DNA from: a virus
Virus genome (UHGV): UHGV-0210832
DNA: 40,024 bases
Reading direction: 5' to 3' (one strand)
Below are positions 1 to 40,012 of this stretch, in pieces. A program made the translations under genes and the position numbers. Numbering within the stretch: the first letter of the stretch is position 1; each line of letters starts with the position of its first letter. The notes under the pieces are model-generated. The model was not told the DNA's origin and did no database searches. It worked only from the letters and a program-made list of their open reading frames with translations.

Positions 1-1644
1 GCCAATGGCAAAATTTATATCGGTAAAATTGACACGGATCCGGTAAATCCTGAAAACCAGATTCAGGTTTATGTAGAGAATGAAGATGGCTCTCACGTTC
101 CTGTTTCGCAACCAATCATCATTAACGCTGCTGGATATCCGGTATATAACGGACAGATTGCCAAGTTCGTAACTGTGCAAGGCCATTCTATGGCTGTTTA
201 TGATGCATATGGTGCGCAGCAGTTCTATTTCCCTAATGTGCTGAAGTACGACCCTGATCAATTTGAGAAGAGATTGACATCTTCTGGAGGGGACAAATTA
301 GTAGGGAGCTCATGGGGAGGCGGAAGTGTTTGGGATGACTATGTGGCAAAAAAATTTGCTATTAAAGTGATTAACATTTATCCGACGATGTCAAATGATG
401 AGATTAATTCAATACTTTCTGCTGGCGGACATATTTACTTCAATGCTGGTACTTATACTGTTACATCCACATCAGAGACATTTAAGCTTGGTCAAAACAG
501 CATAGTTTATTTTCATCCAAATGCGCTTTTAATGGCTGGGGCCGATGGGGTTACGGTTCTTAGGGCATCTTCGCTAGATGTTGATTCTTCTTTCATCAGA
601 AATTGTAAAATACATGATGTACGCATTGATCTTTCAGGATTTAGCAACTGTATCGGTTTGCATCTATACAGCGCCAGGAACAACACTGGTGTTTTCGAAC
701 CTTGGGTTGATATGGGGGTAGGCACAGGGAATACAGGCATTAAAATTGAATTTATGAGTTACGGGATTATTATCGCTAACTCAGAAATTCTGAATGGCGG
801 CGCAGGTGGGAAACGTTTGTTTGTCCTTAATGGTCCGAACGCTATTACGATTAAAGACCATCGTGGATATTCTGCCGACCCGGCAAACAAGTGCGATTAT
901 GGCGTCGTAATTTTTAATGGCGTTGATGGAAGTACTGATGTTGATTTCGTGAATACATTCACAACTTCTGCTGTATGTATTACTGGTGGTTTTATCCAGA
1001 ATACAAGTCAGTTTGGACTTTATGACAGCGCTGATGGAACAAACGTCTACGGAACTTACTTTGAAAGTAACGATGTTGCTGATATTAGTTTGAGTAGTGG
1101 TAGTCGAGATTTTTACTGTTCTGGAGTACAACACAGTCACTCAAAAGGTGATTGCATGTATCGAGGAAGGGGATGTGTAGGTGCTGTCATACAATCACCA
1201 AACAACGGACTTAGAGCACGTATGTTCGACTTTTCTGGTTCTAGCAAATGTTATGCTTACATACCAAGAGCCAGAGCATTCCCCGGAGGAACAGTCATCC
1301 CAATTGGTAATACTGATGGCCTTGCTTTAGACAGGGGGAGTCAGTCGTTTCTACAATACTCGCAGTCATCGCTTCCTATAGATATTCGCCAGGGATATGC
1401 TGTGTATTATCTTAATGTAACTTCAGGGATGAACATCACTATATCTGGAACGCCATATAACGGGCAAAAGATAAATATTGTTGCCAGGGGAAGTGAGATA
1501 TCTTCCCTATCATTCGCTGGCGTTCCAGTTGATGTTACTGGCGCTAATACAACTCAAATAAAGACCGCTTCATTCACTGCAACATATTGGAGTGAGATTA
1601 ATAAGTGGACATTAACAATGCCTCAATGGACAGCCTCATCATGA
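1..1644 (+). CDS. Tailspike protein, 5'-partial (reading frame 1 is open from base 1; the first ~25 codons lie outside the window)
   Basis: Frame-1 translation from base 1 reads [33 protein letters not shown]...[15 protein letters not shown], which matches my recollection of the P22 tailspike head-binding domain. The C-terminal ~450 aa is unrelated to the P22 receptor domain. Stop at 1642-1644. Confidence 0.85.
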
Positions 1645-3458: not shown

Positions 3459-4082
3459 TTAAAATTCGAATTGTCTCGCCCGAAGGCTTTTCAACATTGG
3501 TCTTGCCCGTTCGAAAACGGCGCTTGTCTGATCAAGTCGTGTCGCCTCCCTTAGCAGTACATCTCTGTTTTTCGTCACCGCATAGAAGGTTTCAAACGCA
3601 ATGTCATACAGCTTACTCGCGTATGATGAGTTAAGTTCCTTCATTATCGGGTACAGGCGTTTGCAGATGTCCTGTGCATTCTCCATCTGTACCTGCATGT
3701 AGCACAGGAGGATGATTTCTTCGTCTGTGAATTGCTGCGCTGGTTGCATGTTGCGAAGTATCTTTTCGCACTCGATGAAGTATCGGCGTATCTGGCGGCC
3801 TTTTTCGTTACGCTCGACCATCGCCAGTTCTTTGGCTGTGTCGAGGGTGAGGTGGTAGTCCTTGCGGTTGTGACCGCCTCTACCAGATGTTTGCTTTCCC
3901 AAATTGGAAAGCAAAATATAGTCTTGATTTTCAATGAATTCGTATTCTGAAATGCGATTTGTAATCCATGCCGCAAACACCTTTTTCACGCCTAAAAAAG
4001 CATGCAGATCGCGGGCATTGCAGAGTAGGGCTGTTTCGTTGGATATAGTGCCGTTGAATACGGGGATGAGTTGACTGGTCAT
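3459..4082 (-). CDS. AntA/AntB-type antirepressor-like protein
   Basis: Start moved to MTSQLIPVFNG (ATG 4082-4080) because of GGAGG 5 nt upstream. NARDLHAFLGVKKVFAAWITNRISEYEFIENQDY resembles the AntA N-terminal domain as I recall it. Confidence 0.55.
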   Translation of the reverse strand: MTSQLIPVFNGTISNETALLCNARDLHAFLGVKKVFAAWITNRISEYEFIENQDYILLSNLGKQTSGRGGHNRKDYHLTLDTAKELAMVERNEKGRQIRRYFIECEKILRNMQPAQQFTDEEIILLCYMQVQMENAQDICKRLYPIMKELNSSYASKLYDIAFETFYAVTKNRDVLLREATRLDQTSAVFERARPMLKSLRARQFEF

Positions 4083-4244
4083 GATGACCTCCTTTGAAGT
4101 TTTAGTTAGCAATCACCAGTTAGTGGCTGGTGATCGGGTGTCAACTAGAGCCTTCAAAGACGCTCCGGGCATATTCCCCTTGCGGGTATTGTATTACGCC
4201 TCTCCACCCGACCTTTGTACGGATGTGACTATGCCAAATTGCAG

Positions 4245-4437: not shown

Positions 4438-5001
4438 TTAGCCACGGTTAACCTCCTGCTTCGGTGCTGCTGGCATTTCACGCCAGTGCGTAACTGAGTG
4501 CGGATTCGGATATTCGGTGCCATCATCCCAGCGATTACCATTCCACATTGCAGACCACATCTCACCGTCTTCATACATGACCATTACCGGAATTAACTTA
4601 TCCGGCATTTGCTCACTACAGCTTATCCAGCCAGCCGGAGTTACCGGAGGGGTACCCGATAGCGCATTCTGCTCCAGTGATGCTTTTACAAACCACGCTG
4701 CCTGAACTATTACGCCATGAATCCAGCGCAAATCAGCATCGCGATCGTTCTTTTTCATCTTTTCACCACTTAAAGCCTGGCTTATGTGGCTGCGAACCAG
4801 GTCTTCATGTAACTCCTTCGCATCCTCAATGGTGAAACCACCAGGTAAACGCCCCGGAGTTACCGGAGAGTTACCAGCCTTGCGCATGGCAATTTCCACG
4901 ATTTCAACCATATCTTCTGGCAGAATTTTACAAAGCTGGCCAAAGCGCCTCTGCTGCCTGGCATACTCGAGGATGTGCTCCAGTTTGGTTCGATTAATCA
5001 T
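4438..5001 (-). CDS. Hypothetical phage protein, DUF551-like C-terminal region
   Basis: 187 aa ORF; ATG overlaps the stop of the upstream gene (ATGA coupling). C-terminal WISCSEQMPD...WDDGTEYPNPHSVTHWREMP resembles DUF551 phage proteins (from memory). Confidence 0.5.
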   Translation of the reverse strand: MINRTKLEHILEYARQQRRFGQLCKILPEDMVEIVEIAMRKAGNSPVTPGRLPGGFTIEDAKELHEDLVRSHISQALSGEKMKKNDRDADLRWIHGVIVQAAWFVKASLEQNALSGTPPVTPAGWISCSEQMPDKLIPVMVMYEDGEMWSAMWNGNRWDDGTEYPNPHSVTHWREMPAAPKQEVNRG

Positions 5002-6262: not shown

Positions 6263-6696
6263 TGGTTGCCTCCTTTGCGAAGCTGGGCGGCTAACTCATC
6301 ACATATGTGCGTCAAAGAGCAAAGTTTGATTGATGGATGTTCGCGCATCATCTCAACCCCCTGCGCCCGCACCTCAGCAAGGAAAGCATCGGTGGCTGGG
6401 GTGCCTGATTGCAGAGACTTTGCGCGATAGTCATTCCACCCTCTTGCATACATGGGATTAACTTGCACTCCATCTTTTACGCAATATGCCTGCCCTCCAC
6501 GGTTGATAACCTTGATTTCGTCCATAGCGCCAGACTTCAGCCCCGCATTCTCCGCTGCCAGCGCCGCGCACTTGGCCTGCGCTTCAGCAAATTTACGCAC
6601 CAGATATTCAGCGTTTGTTTCGTTAACCTTTAAATCTCGTGGGATGCATTTACCTTTCAGAAATCCATCCATCTCAATTAGTGTCATTTGTTTCAT
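6259..6696 (-). CDS. Hypothetical protein (145 aa)
   Basis: ORF in operon register; start/stop overlap with neighbours. Confidence 0.5.
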
Positions 6697-6860
6697 TTCT
6701 TCCCACTCCGCAACATCGCATTCAGATATTTGTTTTGATTCACTGACGGAAAAGAATTTCTCTTAAGCAATTCTTCCTCTCTCGATGGCATTGGCTTTAC
6801 GCGTTGGCGAATAATCATTTCTGCCGGAAGAATGCCGGGATTGTATGCAAGTCCTCTCAT
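6693..6860 (-). CDS. Hypothetical small protein (55 aa)
   Basis: Start set at MRGLAYNPG (ATG 6860-6858) with GAGGAA RBS; the longer track ORF would overlap the upstream gene by 56 nt. Confidence 0.4.
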
Positions 6861-6870
6861 GGTAAATTCC

Positions 6871-7164
6871 TCAGTCATTACTGATAGCGCCATAGCGTGA
6901 GCGGTAATTACGCAGGCGCGGGTCAATTTCAGGGAATTTGTCTATTGTCGCTTTTCGCAACGGTCGCATTGCTGTTTCGTTTGTTCGGTCCTTCTCATCT
7001 TTTAACGCGAGCTGTATATCGCGTCGGTACATCCGTTCTGCTTTTGTTTCTGGTGTCAGAGCAAGAAACGCGTCGAAATTGTTTTTGATATTTTCCAGCA
7101 CCTCCGCCTTGGAGCTACCGGAGCAGTTGCGCGGGTCATCCGCACCATACAGAGGCGCTGGCAT
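6871..7164 (-). CDS. Hypothetical protein (97 aa); weak guess at an Abc2-like anti-RecBCD function
   Basis: 97 aa ORF immediately downstream of the recombination module. The Abc2 idea rests only on position and size, not on recognised sequence. Confidence 0.4.
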
Positions 7165-7187
7165 AATGGGAGCCTTATTTTCAGTAA

Positions 7188-7775
7188 TCAGAAAGGAGGG
7201 TAATCGTTCTGGCTGTAACCATAATCATCTGCATGATTCTGGCTTACGTTTTTAGAGCGATTGTCTTTATCTTTGAGGCTGGCAACCATGTTGGCGATAG
7301 CTTCTGGTTGCTTGCCTTCCGCCTTTTCTTTAAGGGTTTGACCTGTTTGTGCAATAAACGGGATGCGTATTTCCATCTGGTAGCTGTCTGCGCCAGTCTT
7401 TTTGTTTGTGGTTAATACTTTCTGGAGCACTAACCCGATTTTCTTTCCATGAAATTCAGGTGCAACAAATTTACTGGCGGAAACCATATGCTGCGTTAAT
7501 TGTCCAATCCCGGCACACCCCATCATGGCGTGAACGACATTTGCGCCAAATTTGTTTTCCGTTCCGTCATTTTTCTGAACACAGACGCTAAGATATTGGA
7601 TTTTACGTCCGTCGTCAGATTCGCCAGAAAACTCAATAAATTTGGCTCCTTTTTCTGATTGCTTTAGTTCTGCTTCAGTAATGGTAATGATATGAGCACC
7701 AGTTTCGTTAATAAAACCACCTTGCCCTGCGGTCAGTGCTGCTTCTTCGTTATAAGTAAAAATCACGTTGCTCAT
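7188..7775 (-). CDS. Sak4-associated ssDNA-binding-like protein (DUF669-like)
   Basis: 195 aa, translationally coupled to the upstream RecA-like ATPase. Family assignment is from memory of Sak4 modules and not verified. Confidence 0.45.
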   Translation of the reverse strand: MSNVIFTYNEEAALTAGQGGFINETGAHIITITEAELKQSEKGAKFIEFSGESDDGRKIQYLSVCVQKNDGTENKFGANVVHAMMGCAGIGQLTQHMVSASKFVAPEFHGKKIGLVLQKVLTTNKKTGADSYQMEIRIPFIAQTGQTLKEKAEGKQPEAIANMVASLKDKDNRSKNVSQNHADDYGYSQNDYPPF

Positions 7776-8452
7776 GCGGCGTTTTCCTTAATTTGATGAA
7801 CATTATTGATGCCGTAGTAATCACAAACAGTGGCATCGACGAAAGAGAGATCGTTATCAATCTCATTGGAATCAAACATTCCCATTGGGGATTTAACAGT
7901 GTCTGCACCGTTGTTTTTTGTGGTGAAAAAGAACTGGTCATCACGGGTAAGGGTGCGAAGAACTATAGTAAACATGCCTTCGACAGTGATTTTCTCGTCC
8001 AGCATTTTGCCGATAGTCTTCATTTTCACACGCCCCATAGGAGTTTCTTCGGTGTGCGCAAGAAAATAGACTCTCAGATCATCAGGCGCATCCTGCGCAG
8101 CCTTAATGACCTCCCATGCGTGGCGGCCTATCTCAGTAAACTTATCAAACGATTTTTCTTCTGAGCGGCGCATAAACTCATTGCTCATCACATACTGGAA
8201 GTCATCAACAATAACGATTCTTTTTCCGTATTCGTGAGCACGCTTAATTACAGCAACTATTACGTCCCATTTGTCAGTGGTAACTACGGTTCCTTTTTTT
8301 GCTCTGGCATCCCACGCCAGCCATTCTTTTGATTTAAATGGTAGCGGCTTGCCTATTGGTTTTATAAGTATTGCTTCCTCTGGGTTGATATTTCTCATAC
8401 TGGTTGATTTTCCGGTGCCAGATTCACCGAGTATTAATGTTGCAGTTCCCAT
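7772..8452 (-). CDS. Sak4-like RecA-fold ATPase (core-only recombinase)
   Basis: 226 aa; Walker A GESGTGKS near the N-terminus and Walker B-like RIVIVDD; size and motifs fit Sak4-type phage recombinases. Confidence 0.65.
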   Translation of the reverse strand: MGTATLILGESGTGKSTSMRNINPEEAILIKPIGKPLPFKSKEWLAWDARAKKGTVVTTDKWDVIVAVIKRAHEYGKRIVIVDDFQYVMSNEFMRRSEEKSFDKFTEIGRHAWEVIKAAQDAPDDLRVYFLAHTEETPMGRVKMKTIGKMLDEKITVEGMFTIVLRTLTRDDQFFFTTKNNGADTVKSPMGMFDSNEIDNDLSFVDATVCDYYGINNVHQIKENAA

Positions 8453-8460
8453 AATTCACC

Positions 8461-8649
8461 TCAGAATGGTAATTCGGATGGGGAGGAAAGAAACTCGCGC
8501 TCATTCATGCGCTCTCTTTGTGCCTGCCATAAACAAAGTTGTTTCTTTGATTTATCTCCCGCTTTACGCCAGTAACGAGCCTCAGCAATGTGATATTCTC
8601 TTTTTAATCGACTTAACTCTGGAGTTTTCGCCAGTTCTACCGGAATCAT
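8461..8649 (-). CDS. Hypothetical small protein (62 aa)
   Basis: Start at MIPVELAK (ATG 8649-8647) with GGAGG upstream; ATGA overlap with the kil stop. Confidence 0.4.
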   Translation of the reverse strand: MIPVELAKTPELSRLKREYHIAEARYWRKAGDKSKKQLCLWQAQRERMNEREFLSSPSELPF

Positions 8650-8759
8650 TTTGACCTCCATTTCCTGTAGGCTTCGACGGCCTCACGAAACATCTTTTCA
8701 TCGCCAATAAAAGTGGCGATAGTGAATTTAGTCTGGATAGCCATAAGTGTTTTATCCAT
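8646..8759 (-). CDS. kil: Kil-like host-killing protein (37 aa)
   Basis: MDKTLMAIQTKFTIATFIGDEKMFREAVEAYRKWRSK resembles my recollection of the lambda Kil N-terminus. The ATG overlaps the cIII stop; the longer track ORF is an upstream extension. Confidence 0.6.
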   Translation of the reverse strand: MDKTLMAIQTKFTIATFIGDEKMFREAVEAYRKWRSK

Positions 8760-8892
8760 TTTTGGGAACTCCTGGCTGATTAAGTATGTCGATAAGGCGT
8801 TTCCATCCGTCACGTAATTTACGGGTGATTCGTTCAAGTAAAGATTCGGAAGGGCAGCCAGCAACAGGCCACCCTGCAATGGCATATTGCAT
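8752..8892 (-). CDS. cIII: CIII (FtsH inhibitor), 46 aa
   Basis: Not in the ORF track (under 60 aa). Manual translation from ATG 8892-8890 gives MQYAIAGWPVAGCPSESLLERITRKLRDGWKRLIDILNQPGVPKNG, matching lambda CIII as I recall it; AAGGAG RBS 7 nt upstream. Confidence 0.8.
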   Translation of the reverse strand: MQYAIAGWPVAGCPSESLLERITRKLRDGWKRLIDILNQPGVPKNG

Positions 8893-8964
8893 GGTGTGCT
8901 CCTTATTTATACATAACGAAAAACGCCTCGAGTGAAGCGTTATTGGTATGCGGTAACGCCGCGC

Positions 8965-9333
8965 TCAGGCGGCTTTGATAGTCATATCATCTGAATCAAA
9001 TATTCCTGATGTATCGATATCGGTAATTCTTATTCCTTCGCTACCATCCATTGGAGGCCATCCTTCCTGACCATTTCCATCATTCCAGTCGAACTCACAT
9101 ACAACACCATATGCATTTAAGTCTTTCGAAATTGCTATAAGCAGAGTATGTTGCGCCAGCATGATTAATACAGCATTTAATACAGAGCCGTGTTTATTGA
9201 GTCGGTATTCAGAGTCTGACCAGAAATTATTAATCTGGTGAAGTTTTTCCTCTGTCATTACGTCATGGTCGATTTCAATTTCTATTGATGCTTTCCAGTC
9301 GTAATCAATGATGTATTTTTTGATGTTTGACAT
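8965..9333 (-). CDS. Hypothetical acidic protein (122 aa)
   Basis: ORF with GAGGAT RBS upstream of ATG 9333; no recognisable domain. Confidence 0.5.
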   Translation of the reverse strand: MSNIKKYIIDYDWKASIEIEIDHDVMTEEKLHQINNFWSDSEYRLNKHGSVLNAVLIMLAQHTLLIAISKDLNAYGVVCEFDWNDGNGQEGWPPMDGSEGIRITDIDTSGIFDSDDMTIKAA

Positions 9334-11022: not shown

Positions 11023-11229
11023 TCACCTCGCTGTCAGTTGTTTTGATTTCCGGTAGCCTGCCGCGTAAATGGCTACGTTTGGCAGGCAGCACGAACCACA
11101 TTCAACCTTCTTCCTATTCGCTCCTGCTAGCGAAACCACCATTGAAACACGGTCAATATTTTTACGTTTTGCTGTCGCCTCTTTGTGCTTACGAGCGCGT
11201 TCGAGTTTGCGAATCTCTCTTGCTTTCAC
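11023..11229 (-). CDS. N: N-like early antiterminator (P22 gene 24 type)
   Basis: 68 aa with GTG start and GGAGG RBS. C-terminal SLAGANRKKVECGSCCLPNVAIYAAGYRKSKQLTAR resembles my recollection of P22 gp24. First gene downstream of pL/nutL. Confidence 0.65.
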   Translation of the reverse strand: MKAREIRKLERARKHKEATAKRKNIDRVSMVVSLAGANRKKVECGSCCLPNVAIYAAGYRKSKQLTAR

Positions 11230-11724: not shown

Positions 11725-11910
11725 TTACAGAGCAAAGAGATCACGCATTAGGTTGCTGTTCATCTGGTGGTTGAATTGATACGGCTCCAGTTCTTTTTTG
11801 ATCTCGTTCAGGTGCTGTTCCGCTTTTCTTGCCAGATTGCGACTTTCTTGGATCTGGCTTTCCAACATTTTGTTGAGAATTTCCATCTCCGGTTGCAGAT
11901 TCTTCGGCAT
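11725..11910 (-). CDS. Small predicted coiled-coil protein (61 aa) in the rex-equivalent locus
   Basis: AAAGAGGA RBS 8 nt before ATG 11910; codons in this frame are host-typical (CTG, CCG, AAC, GAG); the frame closes 14 codons upstream of the ATG. Confidence 0.5.
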   Translation of the reverse strand: MPKNLQPEMEILNKMLESQIQESRNLARKAEQHLNEIKKELEPYQFNHQMNSNLMRDLFAL

Positions 11911-12745
11911 TAGTATTGTCCTCTTTATCTTGTGTAGTAAGAGGGAAATCCATCACCCTTGGTTTTCCAAACGTTGGGATTTCACCACTATGAATCTTAT
12001 CACAGAAAAAATTATCGAGTATTTCTGTTATACCTTTAGGACATTCAACACACTTGAAAAGTTCCTTGGCTTCTTTTCTGTCGATAACAAATCCATGTGA
12101 AGGATACGAAGCGATGAGTTTGCTTAACGCCCCTTCTTTTAGACTACTTGGCTTGTCTGCTAACCGTTGACCATAAGTGATAGCAATGCTCATCGCACGC
12201 TGATGCTCACCAAGTTTTATTGGATCTATCTGAGCAGCCATGGGGGCTATCAATGCCTCTGTAAGTCTGGTTGCGATGTCAGCAGATATTTTAGTGCTTA
12301 TCTGGTTTTCGTATTTTATCTGAACAAGGTATGAGTTAAACGCTGAAATAGAGCGCTCCTTCAGTGCATCGAGAGCTGTCATAATGGCTAAACCAGAACT
12401 CATCTCACCTATTTCATCGTTTTTTTTCAGTTGGATATCTAATGGCCCGAGCTCACCCATGTCACCGATAACAAGTTTATTCGCAGCTATGGCTATTAGT
12501 GTACCAGCACTTTTGCACGGCCCAACAACTAAAAGTGTTACCGTTTCATAATAGTGCTGGAGAGCCCTACCTATACGATAACCAGCATTAGGATCACCGC
12601 CATAAGTAGCAACACAGAAGATAACATTCTTTTTTAATTCATTTTGTGACTTACGCTTCTTGATTTTATTGGTTAGATCAAGATAACCATCACGATGAAT
12701 ATCGCCTATATACACATAAACATCATTATTTTCAATAGTATTCAT
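11741..12745 (-). CDS. ClpP/crotonase-fold (S49/SDH-like) serine-protease-domain protein in the rexAB-equivalent position
   Basis: 334 aa; GGGAG RBS before ATG 12745. N-terminal ~130 aa align by eye to ClpP: VATYGGDPNAGYRIG against YINSPGGVITAG and VVGPCKSAGTLIAIAANK against CMGQAASMGAFLLTAG (putative nucleophile Ser in KSAG). The last ~56 codons overlap the 61-aa ORF in another frame and use rare codons. Confidence 0.55.
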   Translation of the reverse strand: MNTIENNDVYVYIGDIHRDGYLDLTNKIKKRKSQNELKKNVIFCVATYGGDPNAGYRIGRALQHYYETVTLLVVGPCKSAGTLIAIAANKLVIGDMGELGPLDIQLKKNDEIGEMSSGLAIMTALDALKERSISAFNSYLVQIKYENQISTKISADIATRLTEALIAPMAAQIDPIKLGEHQRAMSIAITYGQRLADKPSSLKEGALSKLIASYPSHGFVIDRKEAKELFKCVECPKGITEILDNFFCDKIHSGEIPTFGKPRVMDFPLTTQDKEDNTNAEESATGDGNSQQNVGKPDPRKSQSGKKSGTAPERDQKRTGAVSIQPPDEQQPNA

Positions 12746-12888: not shown

Positions 12889-13596
12889 TTACCAGCTATG
12901 TGATGACCAGAATACTCTACCAATAATCCTTACTGTTTCATGAAACTCATCTCTATCCATTACTTCATCAGGGTACTCTTCGCGATTTATTGATCTGATT
13001 ATCACCGATGTTGGGGTGGCGATTAATGTTTTTACTCGTAACAAATCAGACTGGCAAATAGCGTAGGTTTTACCATCTCTGATTGTGGTATCTTGTGTGT
13101 TAACGCCAACAACATCTCCGTCGTGAAGCGTTGGTTCCATGCTTTGCCCTACAACCCTAACTAGCTTGGCTGATCTTTCAGATACCCCCATCTTTTTCAG
13201 ATAGTACTTTCTGAAAACCAAAGAGAACTCTGATGATTCCTCTAGCTCGCAGCTACCGCTTCCAGCTGAAAGCGAAACGTTAAGAAGAGGCAACGCGACA
13301 AACTCGTCATCGTTTCTTTTAATATCTTCCCATACCACAGCTTTTAAAGATGATTCACGGACATTGGATGGTTCTTCATGTGTACCATCCCTCATTTCAC
13401 CAATACCAGAGCTAAGCCATTCAGGGCGTACTTTTAAAGCATTGGCTAATTCAACCATCTTGCGAGATCCGTTTGTTTTACCGGATGACATCTTCTGTAT
13501 GGCTGGCTGAGATATTCCAACCATGTCAGCAAGCTGTGATTGCGATACGCCTGCTGAGCTCATGGCTGCATTTAGTCTTTCTGCGAATGTTTTCAT
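12889..13596 (-). CDS. cI: CI-type prophage repressor (HTH plus LexA/S24-like autocleavage domain)
   Basis: Start set at MKTFAERLN (ATG 13596) because the longer track ORF would run into the OR3 operator. HTH region QSQLADMVGISQPAIQKMSSG; C-terminal GQSMEPTLHDGDVV fits the S24 peptidase Ser region. Confidence 0.8.
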   Translation of the reverse strand: MKTFAERLNAAMSSAGVSQSQLADMVGISQPAIQKMSSGKTNGSRKMVELANALKVRPEWLSSGIGEMRDGTHEEPSNVRESSLKAVVWEDIKRNDDEFVALPLLNVSLSAGSGSCELEESSEFSLVFRKYYLKKMGVSERSAKLVRVVGQSMEPTLHDGDVVGVNTQDTTIRDGKTYAICQSDLLRVKTLIATPTSVIIRSINREEYPDEVMDRDEFHETVRIIGRVFWSSHSW

Positions 13597-13608
13597 ACCC
13601 ACAAATCT

Positions 13609-13671
13609 ATAACTACGGTTATCCAAAGTAAAATAACAAAGGTTATTGCTATTTTTTATAACTTGAGTTAT
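13609..13671. promoter_or_regulatory. OR operators (three ATAACnnnnGTTAT palindromes) with embedded divergent pRM/pR
   Basis: ATAACTACGGTTAT (13609-13622), ATAACAAAGGTTAT (13633-13646) and ATAACTTGAGTTAT (13658-13671), spaced about 24-25 bp, between divergent cI and cro. Confidence 0.7.
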
Positions 13672-16987: not shown

Positions 16988-17434
16988 ATGAAGCAAATAT
17001 ACATGCTTCGCAACGAAGCAATCAGAAACAATGCCATAGACGCAATACTCTCACTTCCCATCGACGACAAGTCACCTCACGAAGTCCACATTAAAGAACC
17101 AAAGCGGAGCAATCCTCAAAACCGCCTTATGTGGGCGTTATTGCAGGACGTATCACGTCAGGTGCTTTGGCATGGAAAGAGACTTGCGCCGGAGGACTGG
17201 AAAGATCTGTTCACTGCCCTGTGGCTTAAGACCAAAAAACTGGAGCAACGAAGTGCGCCTGGTATCGACGGTGGCGTTGTTATGCTTGGCGTGCGTACCA
17301 GCAAAATGCGAAAGGCCAGCATGACTGAGCTTATCGAAATCATGTTCTGGTTCGGCTCAGAGCGCAACGTGCGGTGGAGTGATGACTCCCGGCGAGAGTA
17401 TGAATGGTCACAACGAAAAGGGAGGGCTGCATGA
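16988..17434 (+). CDS. ninB: NinB (Orf-family recombination mediator)
   Basis: 148 aa; NPQNRLMWALLQDVSRQVLWHGKRL and C-terminal [21 protein letters not shown] resemble lambda NinB as I recall it. Confidence 0.8.
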   Translation: MKQIYMLRNEAIRNNAIDAILSLPIDDKSPHEVHIKEPKRSNPQNRLMWALLQDVSRQVLWHGKRLAPEDWKDLFTALWLKTKKLEQRSAPGIDGGVVMLGVRTSKMRKASMTELIEIMFWFGSERNVRWSDDSRREYEWSQRKGRAA

Positions 17435-19019: not shown

Positions 19020-19309
19020 TGGTTAACCTACGCAAAGAAGCGCGCGGCAGAGAATGCCAGGTACGTATTTACGGCGTATGCAATGGTAATCCTGAAACTA
19101 CAGTTCTGGCACATTACCGGATGGCTGGAATTTGCGGAACTGGAATGAAGCCTGACGACCTGATCGGTGCATGGGCTTGTAGTTCGTGTCACGATGAAAT
19201 CGACCGACGCACCCATAATCTCGACAACAAAGACGCCAGACTTTACCACCTCGAAGGCGTGATCAGGACGCAGGCGATACTGCTGAAGGAGGGGAAGATT
19301 AAGCCATGA
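19019..19309 (+). CDS. Nin-region Cys-rich protein (DUF1364 / NinX-like)
   Basis: 96 aa with CxxC...CxxC spacing (CQVRIYGVC ... CSSCHDEIDRR); nin-region position. Confidence 0.5.
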   Translation: MVNLRKEARGRECQVRIYGVCNGNPETTVLAHYRMAGICGTGMKPDDLIGAWACSSCHDEIDRRTHNLDNKDARLYHLEGVIRTQAILLKEGKIKP

Positions 19310-19668
19310 ACGAATATCAGTTTGTGCTTCCATACCCGCCGTCGGTGAACACCTACTGGCGAAGACGGGGAAGCCAATACTACATCAGCGATAAAGGCCA
19401 GAAATACCGAAAAGACGTTCAGCAAATCATCCGCCAACTCAAGTTAGATATTTTCACCAAATCACGACTCCGTATCAAAGTCATCGCAGACGTTCCAGAC
19501 TCCCGCCGCCGCGACCTCGACAACATCCTGAAAGGTTTACTCGACTCCCTTATCCACGCCGGATTTGCGGAAGACGACGAGCAATTCGATGACATTCGCG
19601 TAATTCGTGGTGTGAAAGTACCAGGCGGAAGGCTTGGAATAAAAATCACCGAACTGGAGAACGTATGA
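19306..19668 (+). CDS. rusA: RusA-type Holliday junction resolvase
   Basis: 120 aa; LPYPPSVNTYWRRRG and the DLDNILKGLLDSL acidic catalytic region typical of RusA. Confidence 0.8.
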   Translation: MNEYQFVLPYPPSVNTYWRRRGSQYYISDKGQKYRKDVQQIIRQLKLDIFTKSRLRIKVIADVPDSRRRDLDNILKGLLDSLIHAGFAEDDEQFDDIRVIRGVKVPGGRLGIKITELENV

Positions 19669-20430: not shown

Positions 20431-20505
20431 GGGTCAGTCGTATAAAGGTCATTACGGAAGGCTGTTAACCTTCTTATCGTGGTTCGAGTCCACGCTGTCC
20501 CGCCA
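20431..20505 (+). tRNA. tRNA-Asn (anticodon GUU), 75 nt with encoded CCA
   Basis: Hand-folded cloverleaf: 7-bp acceptor stem (one mismatch), anticodon stem GAAGG/CCTTC with loop CTGTTAA (U33, A37), T-arm CGTGG-TTCGAGT-CCACG, discriminator G, CCA. Confidence 0.55.
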
Positions 20506-20510
20506 AATAT

Positions 20511-20586
20511 GCTGGTTTAGCTCTAATGGTAGAGCAGTCGCCTTGTAAGCGAATGGGTAGCGGTTCAAGTCCGTTAACCAGCACCA
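20511..20586 (+). tRNA. tRNA-Thr (anticodon UGU), 76 nt with encoded CCA
   Basis: Hand-folded: perfect 7-bp acceptor stem GCTGGTT/AACCAGC, D-arm GCTC-TAATGGTA-GAGC, anticodon loop CTTGTAA, T-loop TTCAAGT, discriminator A, CCA. Confidence 0.55.
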
Positions 20587-38897: not shown

Positions 38898-39071
38898 ATG
38901 ATAGTCAAGTCAGACGCACCAAAGTACCCTTTGCGCATCCCATTAGAGGTTAAGTTAGCAATCGAGAAGTCAGCGAAAGAAAATGGTCGCTCAATAAATA
39001 CCGAGATGGTAATGCGGTTAGTGGATAGTTTAAGGCGGGATAGTTCTAAAGGTAATCTAGCAAAAAGTTGA
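38898..39071 (+). CDS. arc: Arc-like ribbon-helix-helix repressor
   Basis: Start at MIVKSDAPKYPLRIPLEV (ATG 38898) with GGAGGT RBS; RHH core PLEVKLAIEKSAKENGRSINTEMVMRL resembles P22 Arc. Confidence 0.7.
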   Translation: MIVKSDAPKYPLRIPLEVKLAIEKSAKENGRSINTEMVMRLVDSLRRDSSKGNLAKS

Positions 39072-39133
39072 AGCCCCAACTGCGGTAACAGTCAGGGCTT
39101 CGGTATCAACAAATCGGATTAGGAAATATTGAC

Positions 39134-40012
39134 ATGAAAAGTATAGCAAAGGCACAAAACGATTTCACCATCTTCAAATTCGGCGACAGTGAAATCCGCG
39201 TCATCAACAAATGCGGTGAGCCGTGGTTTGTAGCAAAAGATGTTTGTGATGCTTTAACCCTGACTAACTCACGCAAGGCGCTTACTGCACTTGATGACGA
39301 TGAAAAGGGAGTAACTTTAAGTTACACCCTTGGTGGTGAGCAGAATCTAAGCATTGTTAGCGAATCAGGTATGTATACATTGGTTCTGCGCTGCCGCGAT
39401 GCTGTCAATAAAGGTTCGGTCCCGCACAAATTCCGCAAGTGGGTAACAGCAGAAGTTCTACCTTCAATTCGCAAACATGGCGAGTATGTGAAAGGCAAGA
39501 AAACCACTGTTGAGGAAAGAACGCCGCTACGCGATGCAGTAAACATGCTGGTAGGAAAGAAAGGACTTCGCTATGACGATGCATACAATATGGTTCATCA
39601 GCGTTTTGGTATTGACAGCATTGATGAACTTTCAATTGAACAAATCCCGCTGGCCGTAGAGTACATCCACAGGGTAGTGCTTGAAGGCGAGTTTATCGGC
39701 AAACAAGAGAAGAAAACCAACGAGCTTTCTGCAAAAGAAGCAAACAGCCTTGTATGGTTATGGGATTATGCCAACCGTTCACAGGCATTATTCCGCGAAC
39801 TGTATCCGGCGCTAAAACAAATTCAATCGAACTATTCCGGCAGATGCTACGACTACGGTCATGAGTTCTCGTATGTTATCGGAATGGCGAGAGACGTTTT
39901 AATAAACCACACACGAGATGTTGATATTAATGAGCCAGACGGACCAACGAATCTTTCCGCATGGATGAGACTTAAGAATAAAGAATTACCTCCTTCAGTA
40001 CATAACTACTGA
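39134..40012 (+). CDS. ant: Antirepressor Ant (Bro-N/AntA N-terminal domain)
   Basis: 292 aa; N-terminal [45 protein letters not shown] is a classic Bro-N/Ant pattern; follows arc as in P22 immI. Confidence 0.8.

Follow-up and report, generated by a model that had tools for sequence, protein, structure and literature searches.

The 40,024-nucleotide (nt) phage genome UHGV-0210832 (the window, to which all coordinates refer) contains at 6871–8452 three intact minus-strand open reading frames (ORFs) of 226, 195 and 97 amino acids (aa), which fill this interval exactly and which, with a fourth gene that belongs to them by position, form a recombination (Rec) module of the type known from phage HK620. 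The order is hkaM-sak4-ssb-abc2. The first gene, hkaM (8461–8649, minus strand; 62 aa), is an orphan that lies between kil and sak4, in the slot of P22 arf, and matches PHROG 1723; its translation most likely begins at the ATG at 8649, which has GGAGG ahead of it. It is followed on the same strand by sak4 (hkaL in HK620; 7772–8452), whose 226-aa product is a putative core-only RecA-like ATPase; by ssb (hkaK, or 'SSB-2', in HK620; 7188–7775), whose 195-aa product is a predicted single-stranded DNA (ssDNA)-binding protein with an atypical OB fold and a disordered C-terminal tail; and by abc2 (6871–7164), whose 97-aa product is anti-RecBCD protein 2, a putative RecC-binding modifier of RecBCD. 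The sak4 stop and the ssb start overlap as ATGA (7775–7772), such that ssb begins 4 nt ahead of the sak4 stop, an arrangement that suggests translational coupling.

On its left the module is flanked by kil (8646–8759, minus strand; PF06301, E 5.7e-21) and cIII (8752–8892, minus strand), the latter shortened by an in-frame TAA that leaves 46 codons and overlaps the start region of kil. The lambda cIII thermoregulator RNA is intact at 8847–8905 (minus strand; Rfam RF01804, 88.5 bits) and is the only Rfam match near the module. The conserved right flank is a DUF2737 gene (hkaI in HK620, orf56 in P22; 6693–6860, minus strand; PF10930, E 3.5e-30). There are no repeats in 6500–9000.

A first-pass annotation, made from the raw sequence, had delimited a three-gene module at 6871–8452, called the flanking kil and cIII lambda-like, and read the three products as a core-only RecA-fold ATPase of the Sak4 type with the Walker A motif GESGTGKS, tentatively its SSB-like partner, and possibly an Abc2-like modulator of RecBCD. 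The span coincides with the ORF coordinates exactly, the flanking products are 31/34 (Kil) and 53/54 (cIII) identical to those of lambda, and all three protein assignments proved correct on the evidence that follows.

Proteins of the module

The 226-aa protein is identical at 226 of 226 positions to HkaL of HK620 (tblastn against 50,697 phage records) and matches PHROG 2872, 'Sak4-like ssDNA annealing protein', over residues 1–220 of 226 (E 3e-108); it also matches the Pfam family AAA_24 just above its cutoff (30 bits vs. 27). Walker A occupies residues 9–16 and a Walker B-like IVIVDD residues 79–84; S11, G14, K15 and D83 are invariant in 11 Sak4 homologues, at identities down to 25%. Homologues with identities as low as 25% were recovered by tblastn from phages of Pseudomonas, Acinetobacter and Firmicutes and from crAss-like phages, several of them annotated as Sak4. 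The protein is shorter than RecA (226 vs. 353 aa), and an ssb-like gene directly adjoins its own, as expected of a family in which about 80% of sak4 genes have such a neighbor (PMC5928155). We assign it to the Sak4 family, as defined by the Sak4 proteins of phages 31, PA73 and HK620.

Homology of the Sak4 core to RecA, RadA and Rad51, and most closely to RadB, was established by profile-profile comparison (PMC2896510). Our own alignment of an 11-sequence Sak4 profile with E. coli RecA (hhalign) was weak (probability 10%, E 0.003) and is not counted as evidence; it pairs Sak4 residues 1–90 with RecA residues 59–152, Walker A to Walker B in register, and two P-loop controls, the terminase and the DnaB-like helicase, each reached a probability of about 1%. 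A hidden Markov model of the 11 homologues returned from the PDB sequences only non-significant P-loop matches (FtsY, ABC transporters), which say nothing on RecA homology, and an AlphaFold2 model from the single sequence had a predicted local distance difference test score (pLDDT) of 44, too low to use. PADLOC lent no support to a reading of Sak4 as part of a defence system: It gave a match to mad8 confined to Walker A and a weak match to PDC-S19, both of which we dismissed as P-loop noise.

The 195-aa protein is identical to HkaK of HK620 at 193 of 195 positions, with the C-terminal NDYPPF unchanged, and matches PHROG 743, 'single strand DNA binding protein' (E 2.4e-66). Among its 147 homologues, many are named 'DUF669 domain-containing' by NCBI, and across 40 of them F195 is nearly invariant. 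The first-pass annotation had proposed checking this protein for DUF669: the naming of its relatives agrees with that label, but the Pfam DUF669 model was not matched by hmmscan of the Pfam copy used here, even at E ≤ 10. No Pfam family was found at E ≤ 0.1 and only a spurious CBM9_1 at E ≤ 10; the NCBIfam scan gave nothing useful, and a search of the PDB sequences no match. Because no Pfam, NCBIfam or PDB sequence is matched, we place this SSB outside the bacterial SSB sequence family. Its fold is nonetheless predicted to be OB: A model built from the 40-sequence alignment (pLDDT 80.4, predicted template modeling score 0.76) has a beta-rich core and one helix in OB-fold order, with residues 177–195 predicted to be disordered (pLDDT < 50). 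The structural neighbors of the model are ssDNA-binding proteins, the closest solved structure being PrgE of the Enterococcus plasmid pCF10 (PDB 8s4s). PrgE shares only 13% identity with the window protein, has neither its long linker nor its NDYPPF-type tail, and acts in conjugation without a known Sak4-type partner, whereas the window SSB is paired with Sak4.

The 97-aa protein matches the Pfam family 'anti-RecBCD protein 2' (PF11043) over residues 1–97 of 97 (E 1.7e-37; 127.9 bits vs. the cutoff of 25), as well as PHROG 656, 'abc2 anti-RecBCD', and aligns end to end (1–97) with the Abc2 chain of P22 (PDB 8b1t_A, E 5.4e-34). It is 61.9% identical to Abc2 of P22, 61% to that of HK620 and 99% to that of phage JEP4. 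Pro68, which engages host PpiB (PMC9836394), is kept in the window, HK620 and JEP4 proteins and aligned with that of P22. Since P22 Abc2 binds RecC at its Chi-recognition domains without inhibiting helicase activity (PMC9836394), the window copy, at 62% identity, would likewise bind RecC and modify RecBCD. Its allele differs from that of HK620 but is a common one, occurring at 95–99% aa identity in 60 phage records, mostly of Shiga toxin (Stx) phages. The Chi octamer (GCTGGTGG) is absent from both strands of the window, where 1.1 copies are expected by chance, a difference that is not significant. This absence would fit a phage in which Abc2 modifies RecBCD and Chi is not relied upon, and is not informative.

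HkaM is 61/62 identical (98%) to its HK620 counterpart. The label 'recombinase' attached to PHROG 1723 could not be supported for it. Its C-terminal PSELPF, which does not vary in the homologues that Salmonella phages ES18 and L encode (66–68% identity), resembles the C-terminal tips of SSB proteins (DDDIPF in E. coli, NDYPPF in HK620), and HkaM may be a mimic of the SSB tail. Homologues of HkaM precede three types of Rec module (Sak4 with SSB, Erf with SSB, and Erf with Abc1). In ES18 the homologue is followed by Erf, a bacterial-type SSB, a nuclease and Abc2, and in phage L by Erf, Abc1 and Abc2; these instances rule out hkaM as a gene specific to Sak4.

Exchange with the Erf and Red modules

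The first-pass annotation had recognized no homologue of Erf, Red-beta, Exo or Gam, a claim that holds for the window as a whole. Six-frame tblastn searches of the window for lambda Exo, Bet, Gam and orf60a and for P22 Erf, Arf and Abc1 yielded only short chance alignments (best E 0.005–0.7 over 20–50 aa), and the positive controls matched strongly in the same searches: lambda cIII (8892–8731) and lambda Kil (8759–8658), at the identities given above, and P22 Abc2 at 62%. PHROG scans assigned the other early-region ORFs to integrase, excisionase, Ant, SieB, N, repressor, CII, O, a DnaB-like helicase, NinB/Orf, methylase, an HNH protein, RusA and Q, none of which is an annealase, exonuclease or Gam. 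Because neither approach uncovered an alternative, the replacement of Erf or Red-beta by Sak4 holds window-wide.

Where the exchange begins and ends is visible in a four-way DNA alignment of the region from the window, HK620, JEP4 and P22. The window and HK620 are 97–98.5% identical from cIII through ssb, including the 23-nt spacer between ssb and abc2. All four phages conserve both ends of abc2, the first 40 and the last 54 nt (37/40 and 44/54 nt in P22), as well as the DUF2737 gene, but the central 200 nt of abc2 are 61% identical to both HK620 and P22 and 96% identical to JEP4. This central part falls into two alleles that share about 61% identity, one in the window, JEP4 and the Stx phages and the other in HK620 and P22, and the gene is a mosaic in its own right, with conserved ends that resemble recombination anchors. 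Because the abc2 ends and the DUF2737 gene are common to all four phages, the exchanged cassette relative to P22 is arf-erf-abc1 against hkaM-sak4-ssb, with abc2 and DUF2737 as shared anchors. The module swap claimed in the first-pass annotation is visible in the alignment, although abc2, which had been included in it, is common with P22 and lies outside the swapped cassette.

In P22 the module arf-erf-abc1-abc2 occupies the same slot between kil and orf56; its Abc2 is homologous, with Pro68 kept, but its annealase is Erf, an ATP-independent protein with a Rad52-like fold, and Abc1 and Arf take the place of SSB and HkaM. Relative to lambda, the whole gam-bet-exo set has been replaced: The Red genes hold the same operon position downstream of cIII-kil and have no sequence similarity to the window module, and yet the two sets serve the same task, that is, RecA-independent annealing recombination together with neutralization of RecBCD. 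They go about it differently. Lambda supplies a 5'-3' exonuclease of its own and fully blocks RecBCD through Gam, whereas the window module has no nuclease and would modify RecBCD through Abc2; and unlike the annealase of lambda Red, that of the window is a RecA-core ATPase needing its cognate SSB.

Identity with the HK620 module and proposed mechanism

The closest characterized relative is the module of HK620 itself (AF335538; Hutinet et al. 2018, PMC5928155), which has the same gene order, spacing and overlaps and, at the aa level, 100% (Sak4), 99% (SSB) and 98% (HkaM) identity to that of the window, and even shares the truncation of cIII. It differs in its abc2 allele and in the genes downstream of DUF2737. 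At this level of identity the sak4-ssb core is the same allele as that of HK620, and the window module is syntenic with the annotated pL operon of HK620 and with HK629.

The biochemistry of these proteins was worked out in HK620 (PMC5928155). Only with ATP present does Sak4 bind ssDNA and anneal complementary strands; it has no strand-exchange activity and gives no help to RecA. In oligonucleotide recombineering, sak4 alone raised recombination 15-fold and sak4 with ssb 210-fold, as much as all four genes of the module together, whereas ssb alone had no effect and neither did abc2 when added to sak4. Deleting the last six residues of SSB (NDYPPF) lowered the stimulation 10-fold and abolished the binding of Sak4 to SSB-coated ssDNA. 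At some loci recombineering by the HK620 module is comparable to that by lambda Red. The recombineering assay suggested in the first-pass annotation is thus already published for proteins identical or nearly identical to those of the window.

Because the mechanism has been demonstrated for identical or 99%-identical proteins, we infer that the window copy operates in the same manner. With kil on one side and the ea genes on the other, the module sits in the early-left operon, and its position, its synteny with the annotated HK620 operon and the annotation of P22 suggest early expression from pL with N antitermination. Abc2 would bind RecC of the host RecBCD and alter late, Chi-dependent end processing without blocking unwinding, such that the ends of phage DNA would be resected and not destroyed. 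The phage SSB, presumably an atypical OB-fold tetramer, would coat the resulting ssDNA and expose its NDYPPF tail, through which Sak4 would be recruited for ATP-dependent annealing without strand exchange. The outcome would be RecA-independent recombination of the annealing type and probably also concatemer formation and support of replication.

We regard the stretch as an HK620-type Rec module of a P22-like temperate coliphage, with the early-left location and annealing mechanism set out above, at a probability of roughly 0.94. Nothing that we found contradicts this assignment, and four points temper it. The window Abc2 is only 61–62% identical to the alleles that have been studied, from which its effect on E. 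coli RecBCD is extrapolated; the matches to promoter and terminator that bear on expression from pL are at the consensus level only; the homology of Sak4 to the RecA fold comes from the published profile-profile work (PMC2896510), not from our own comparisons; and abc2 and hkaM added nothing beyond sak4 and ssb in the published recombineering (PMC5928155). Because of this last result, a hand-off from Abc2-modified RecBCD to SSB and Sak4 is hypothetical. An extension of it, in which all four genes make up one pathway, with RecBCD, modified by this divergent Abc2 allele, handing a resected 3' tail to SSB and Sak4, and the PSELPF mimic of HkaM diverting the clients of host SSB or regulating the recruitment of Sak4, we consider improbable.

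Alternative explanations

The alternative that deserves the most attention grants the module its biochemistry and disputes its purpose: Sak4 and SSB would chiefly serve replication, driving the recombination-dependent or rolling-circle switch and producing concatemers for headful packaging, and recombineering would be a laboratory side effect. A Staphylococcus phage needs its Sak4 and SSB for growth and for the formation of genome multimers (cited in PMC5928155), Rec modules have been implicated in the theta-to-sigma switch (PMC12315714), and the window is a P22-like phage of the headful-packaging kind, which needs concatemers. However, this phage has its own O-like initiator and DnaB-like helicase, and no replication phenotype is reported for HK620 sak4 in the literature examined; moreover, since the biochemistry invoked is the same, the explanation preferred here would stand even if replication were the main role. 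We view a primarily replicative role as a genuine possibility, though the less likely emphasis.

Far less can be said for the two remaining alternatives. That the cassette has decayed into a nonfunctional remnant within a cryptic prophage might be suggested by the in-frame stop in cIII just upstream and by a tailspike-like ORF at the start of the window that is without its N-terminal part; but the same cIII truncation is present in HK620, which is viable, all four ORFs of the module are intact and full length in DNA 97–99% identical to that of viable HK620 and JEP4, and the window holds a complete P22-like set of early, lysis and structural genes, which together make decay very unlikely. The scenario that the first-pass annotation had itself named as the one that would overturn it, namely that the 226-aa protein would be a P-loop NTPase of a generic kind (a kinase, packaging ATPase or replication loader) and the 195-aa protein no ssDNA-binding partner, is the least credible of all. 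It could draw on the borderline Pfam match of Sak4 (AAA_24/AAA_22), on the P-loop noise and 10% RecA probability of its profile comparisons, and on the lack of a Pfam or NCBIfam match for the 195-aa protein. Against it, a 100% identical protein has been shown to bind and anneal ssDNA (PMC5928155), its partner shares 99% identity with a demonstrated SSB and has an OB-fold model with ssDNA-binding structural neighbors, and the window has its terminase and replication helicase genes at other loci; the published work on the identical protein has already refuted this reading.

Distribution and significance

The 2.2-kb block from DUF2737 to cIII occurs at ≥80% coverage in 65 phage records and in 180 of 5,426 complete E. 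coli genomes (about 3%). In JEP4 (MT740315) and dozens of Stx1a- and Stx2a-converting phages (LC616xxx, LC744xxx) the block is 97–98% identical to that of the window and carries the same abc2 allele, with point differences only (e.g., the window Abc2 has one Tyr fewer, 97 vs. 98 aa), whereas the rest of these genomes differs mosaically from the window, itself overall a mosaic genome of P22-like (Lederbergvirus) type.

The module is already known. It was recognized in 2010 (PMC2896510), included in a survey of lambdoid prophages in 2013 (PMC3784561), characterized biochemically in 2018 (PMC5928155), and HK620 became the prototype of one of 13 lambdoid Rec-module types in 2025 (PMC12315714); the protein activities and the mosaic exchange with Erf and Red modules have all been published. 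To this our analysis makes two minor additions, the PrgE-like OB fold of the SSB model and the conserved SSB-tail-like C-terminus of HkaM, and the only loose ends with some potential for novelty are the hand-off from Abc2-modified RecBCD to Sak4 and SSB and the orphan HkaM. The practical value lies in correct annotation, as many records give 'DNA binding ATPase', 'hypothetical protein' or 'recombinase' for these genes. In Stx phages and E. coli genomes, an annealase of relaxed fidelity may promote the mosaicism of prophages.

Other features of the window

Accessory recombination functions are encoded outside the module, in the nin region on the plus strand: a recombination mediator, ninB/orf (16988–17434; PHROG 72, E 5.6e-60; PF05772, E 1.8e-48), and a rusA-like Holliday-junction resolvase (19306–19668; PHROG 34, E 6e-54; PF05866, E 1.1e-16).

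Between the repressor gene (12889–13626) and N (11023–11229), in the slot of lambda rexAB, lies an ORF of 334 aa (11741–12745, minus strand) with weak similarity to ClpP/SDH-type serine proteases (Pfam E 3.7e-6, below cutoff); it belongs to a family without assigned function (PHROG 21683, E 4e-172), has no PADLOC match, and could be a moron or defence gene expressed in the lysogen. The ORF at 175–1644 (plus strand) matches tailspike-type PHROGs only from about profile position 86–96 onward, and the N-terminal head-binding part is thus not included in it. Because a P22-type sar antisense RNA (39066–39132; Rfam, 72.7 bits) precedes the last ORF (39134–40012, plus strand), the latter is probably ant. 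Within the ea-gene region, a match to the small RNA sRNA-Xcc1 (4124–4213, minus strand; Rfam, 64.5 bits) sits between an Ant-like ORF (3459–4112) and a DUF551 ORF (4438–5001), and two tRNA genes (Rfam) are located at 20431–20583 (plus strand), just downstream of Q.

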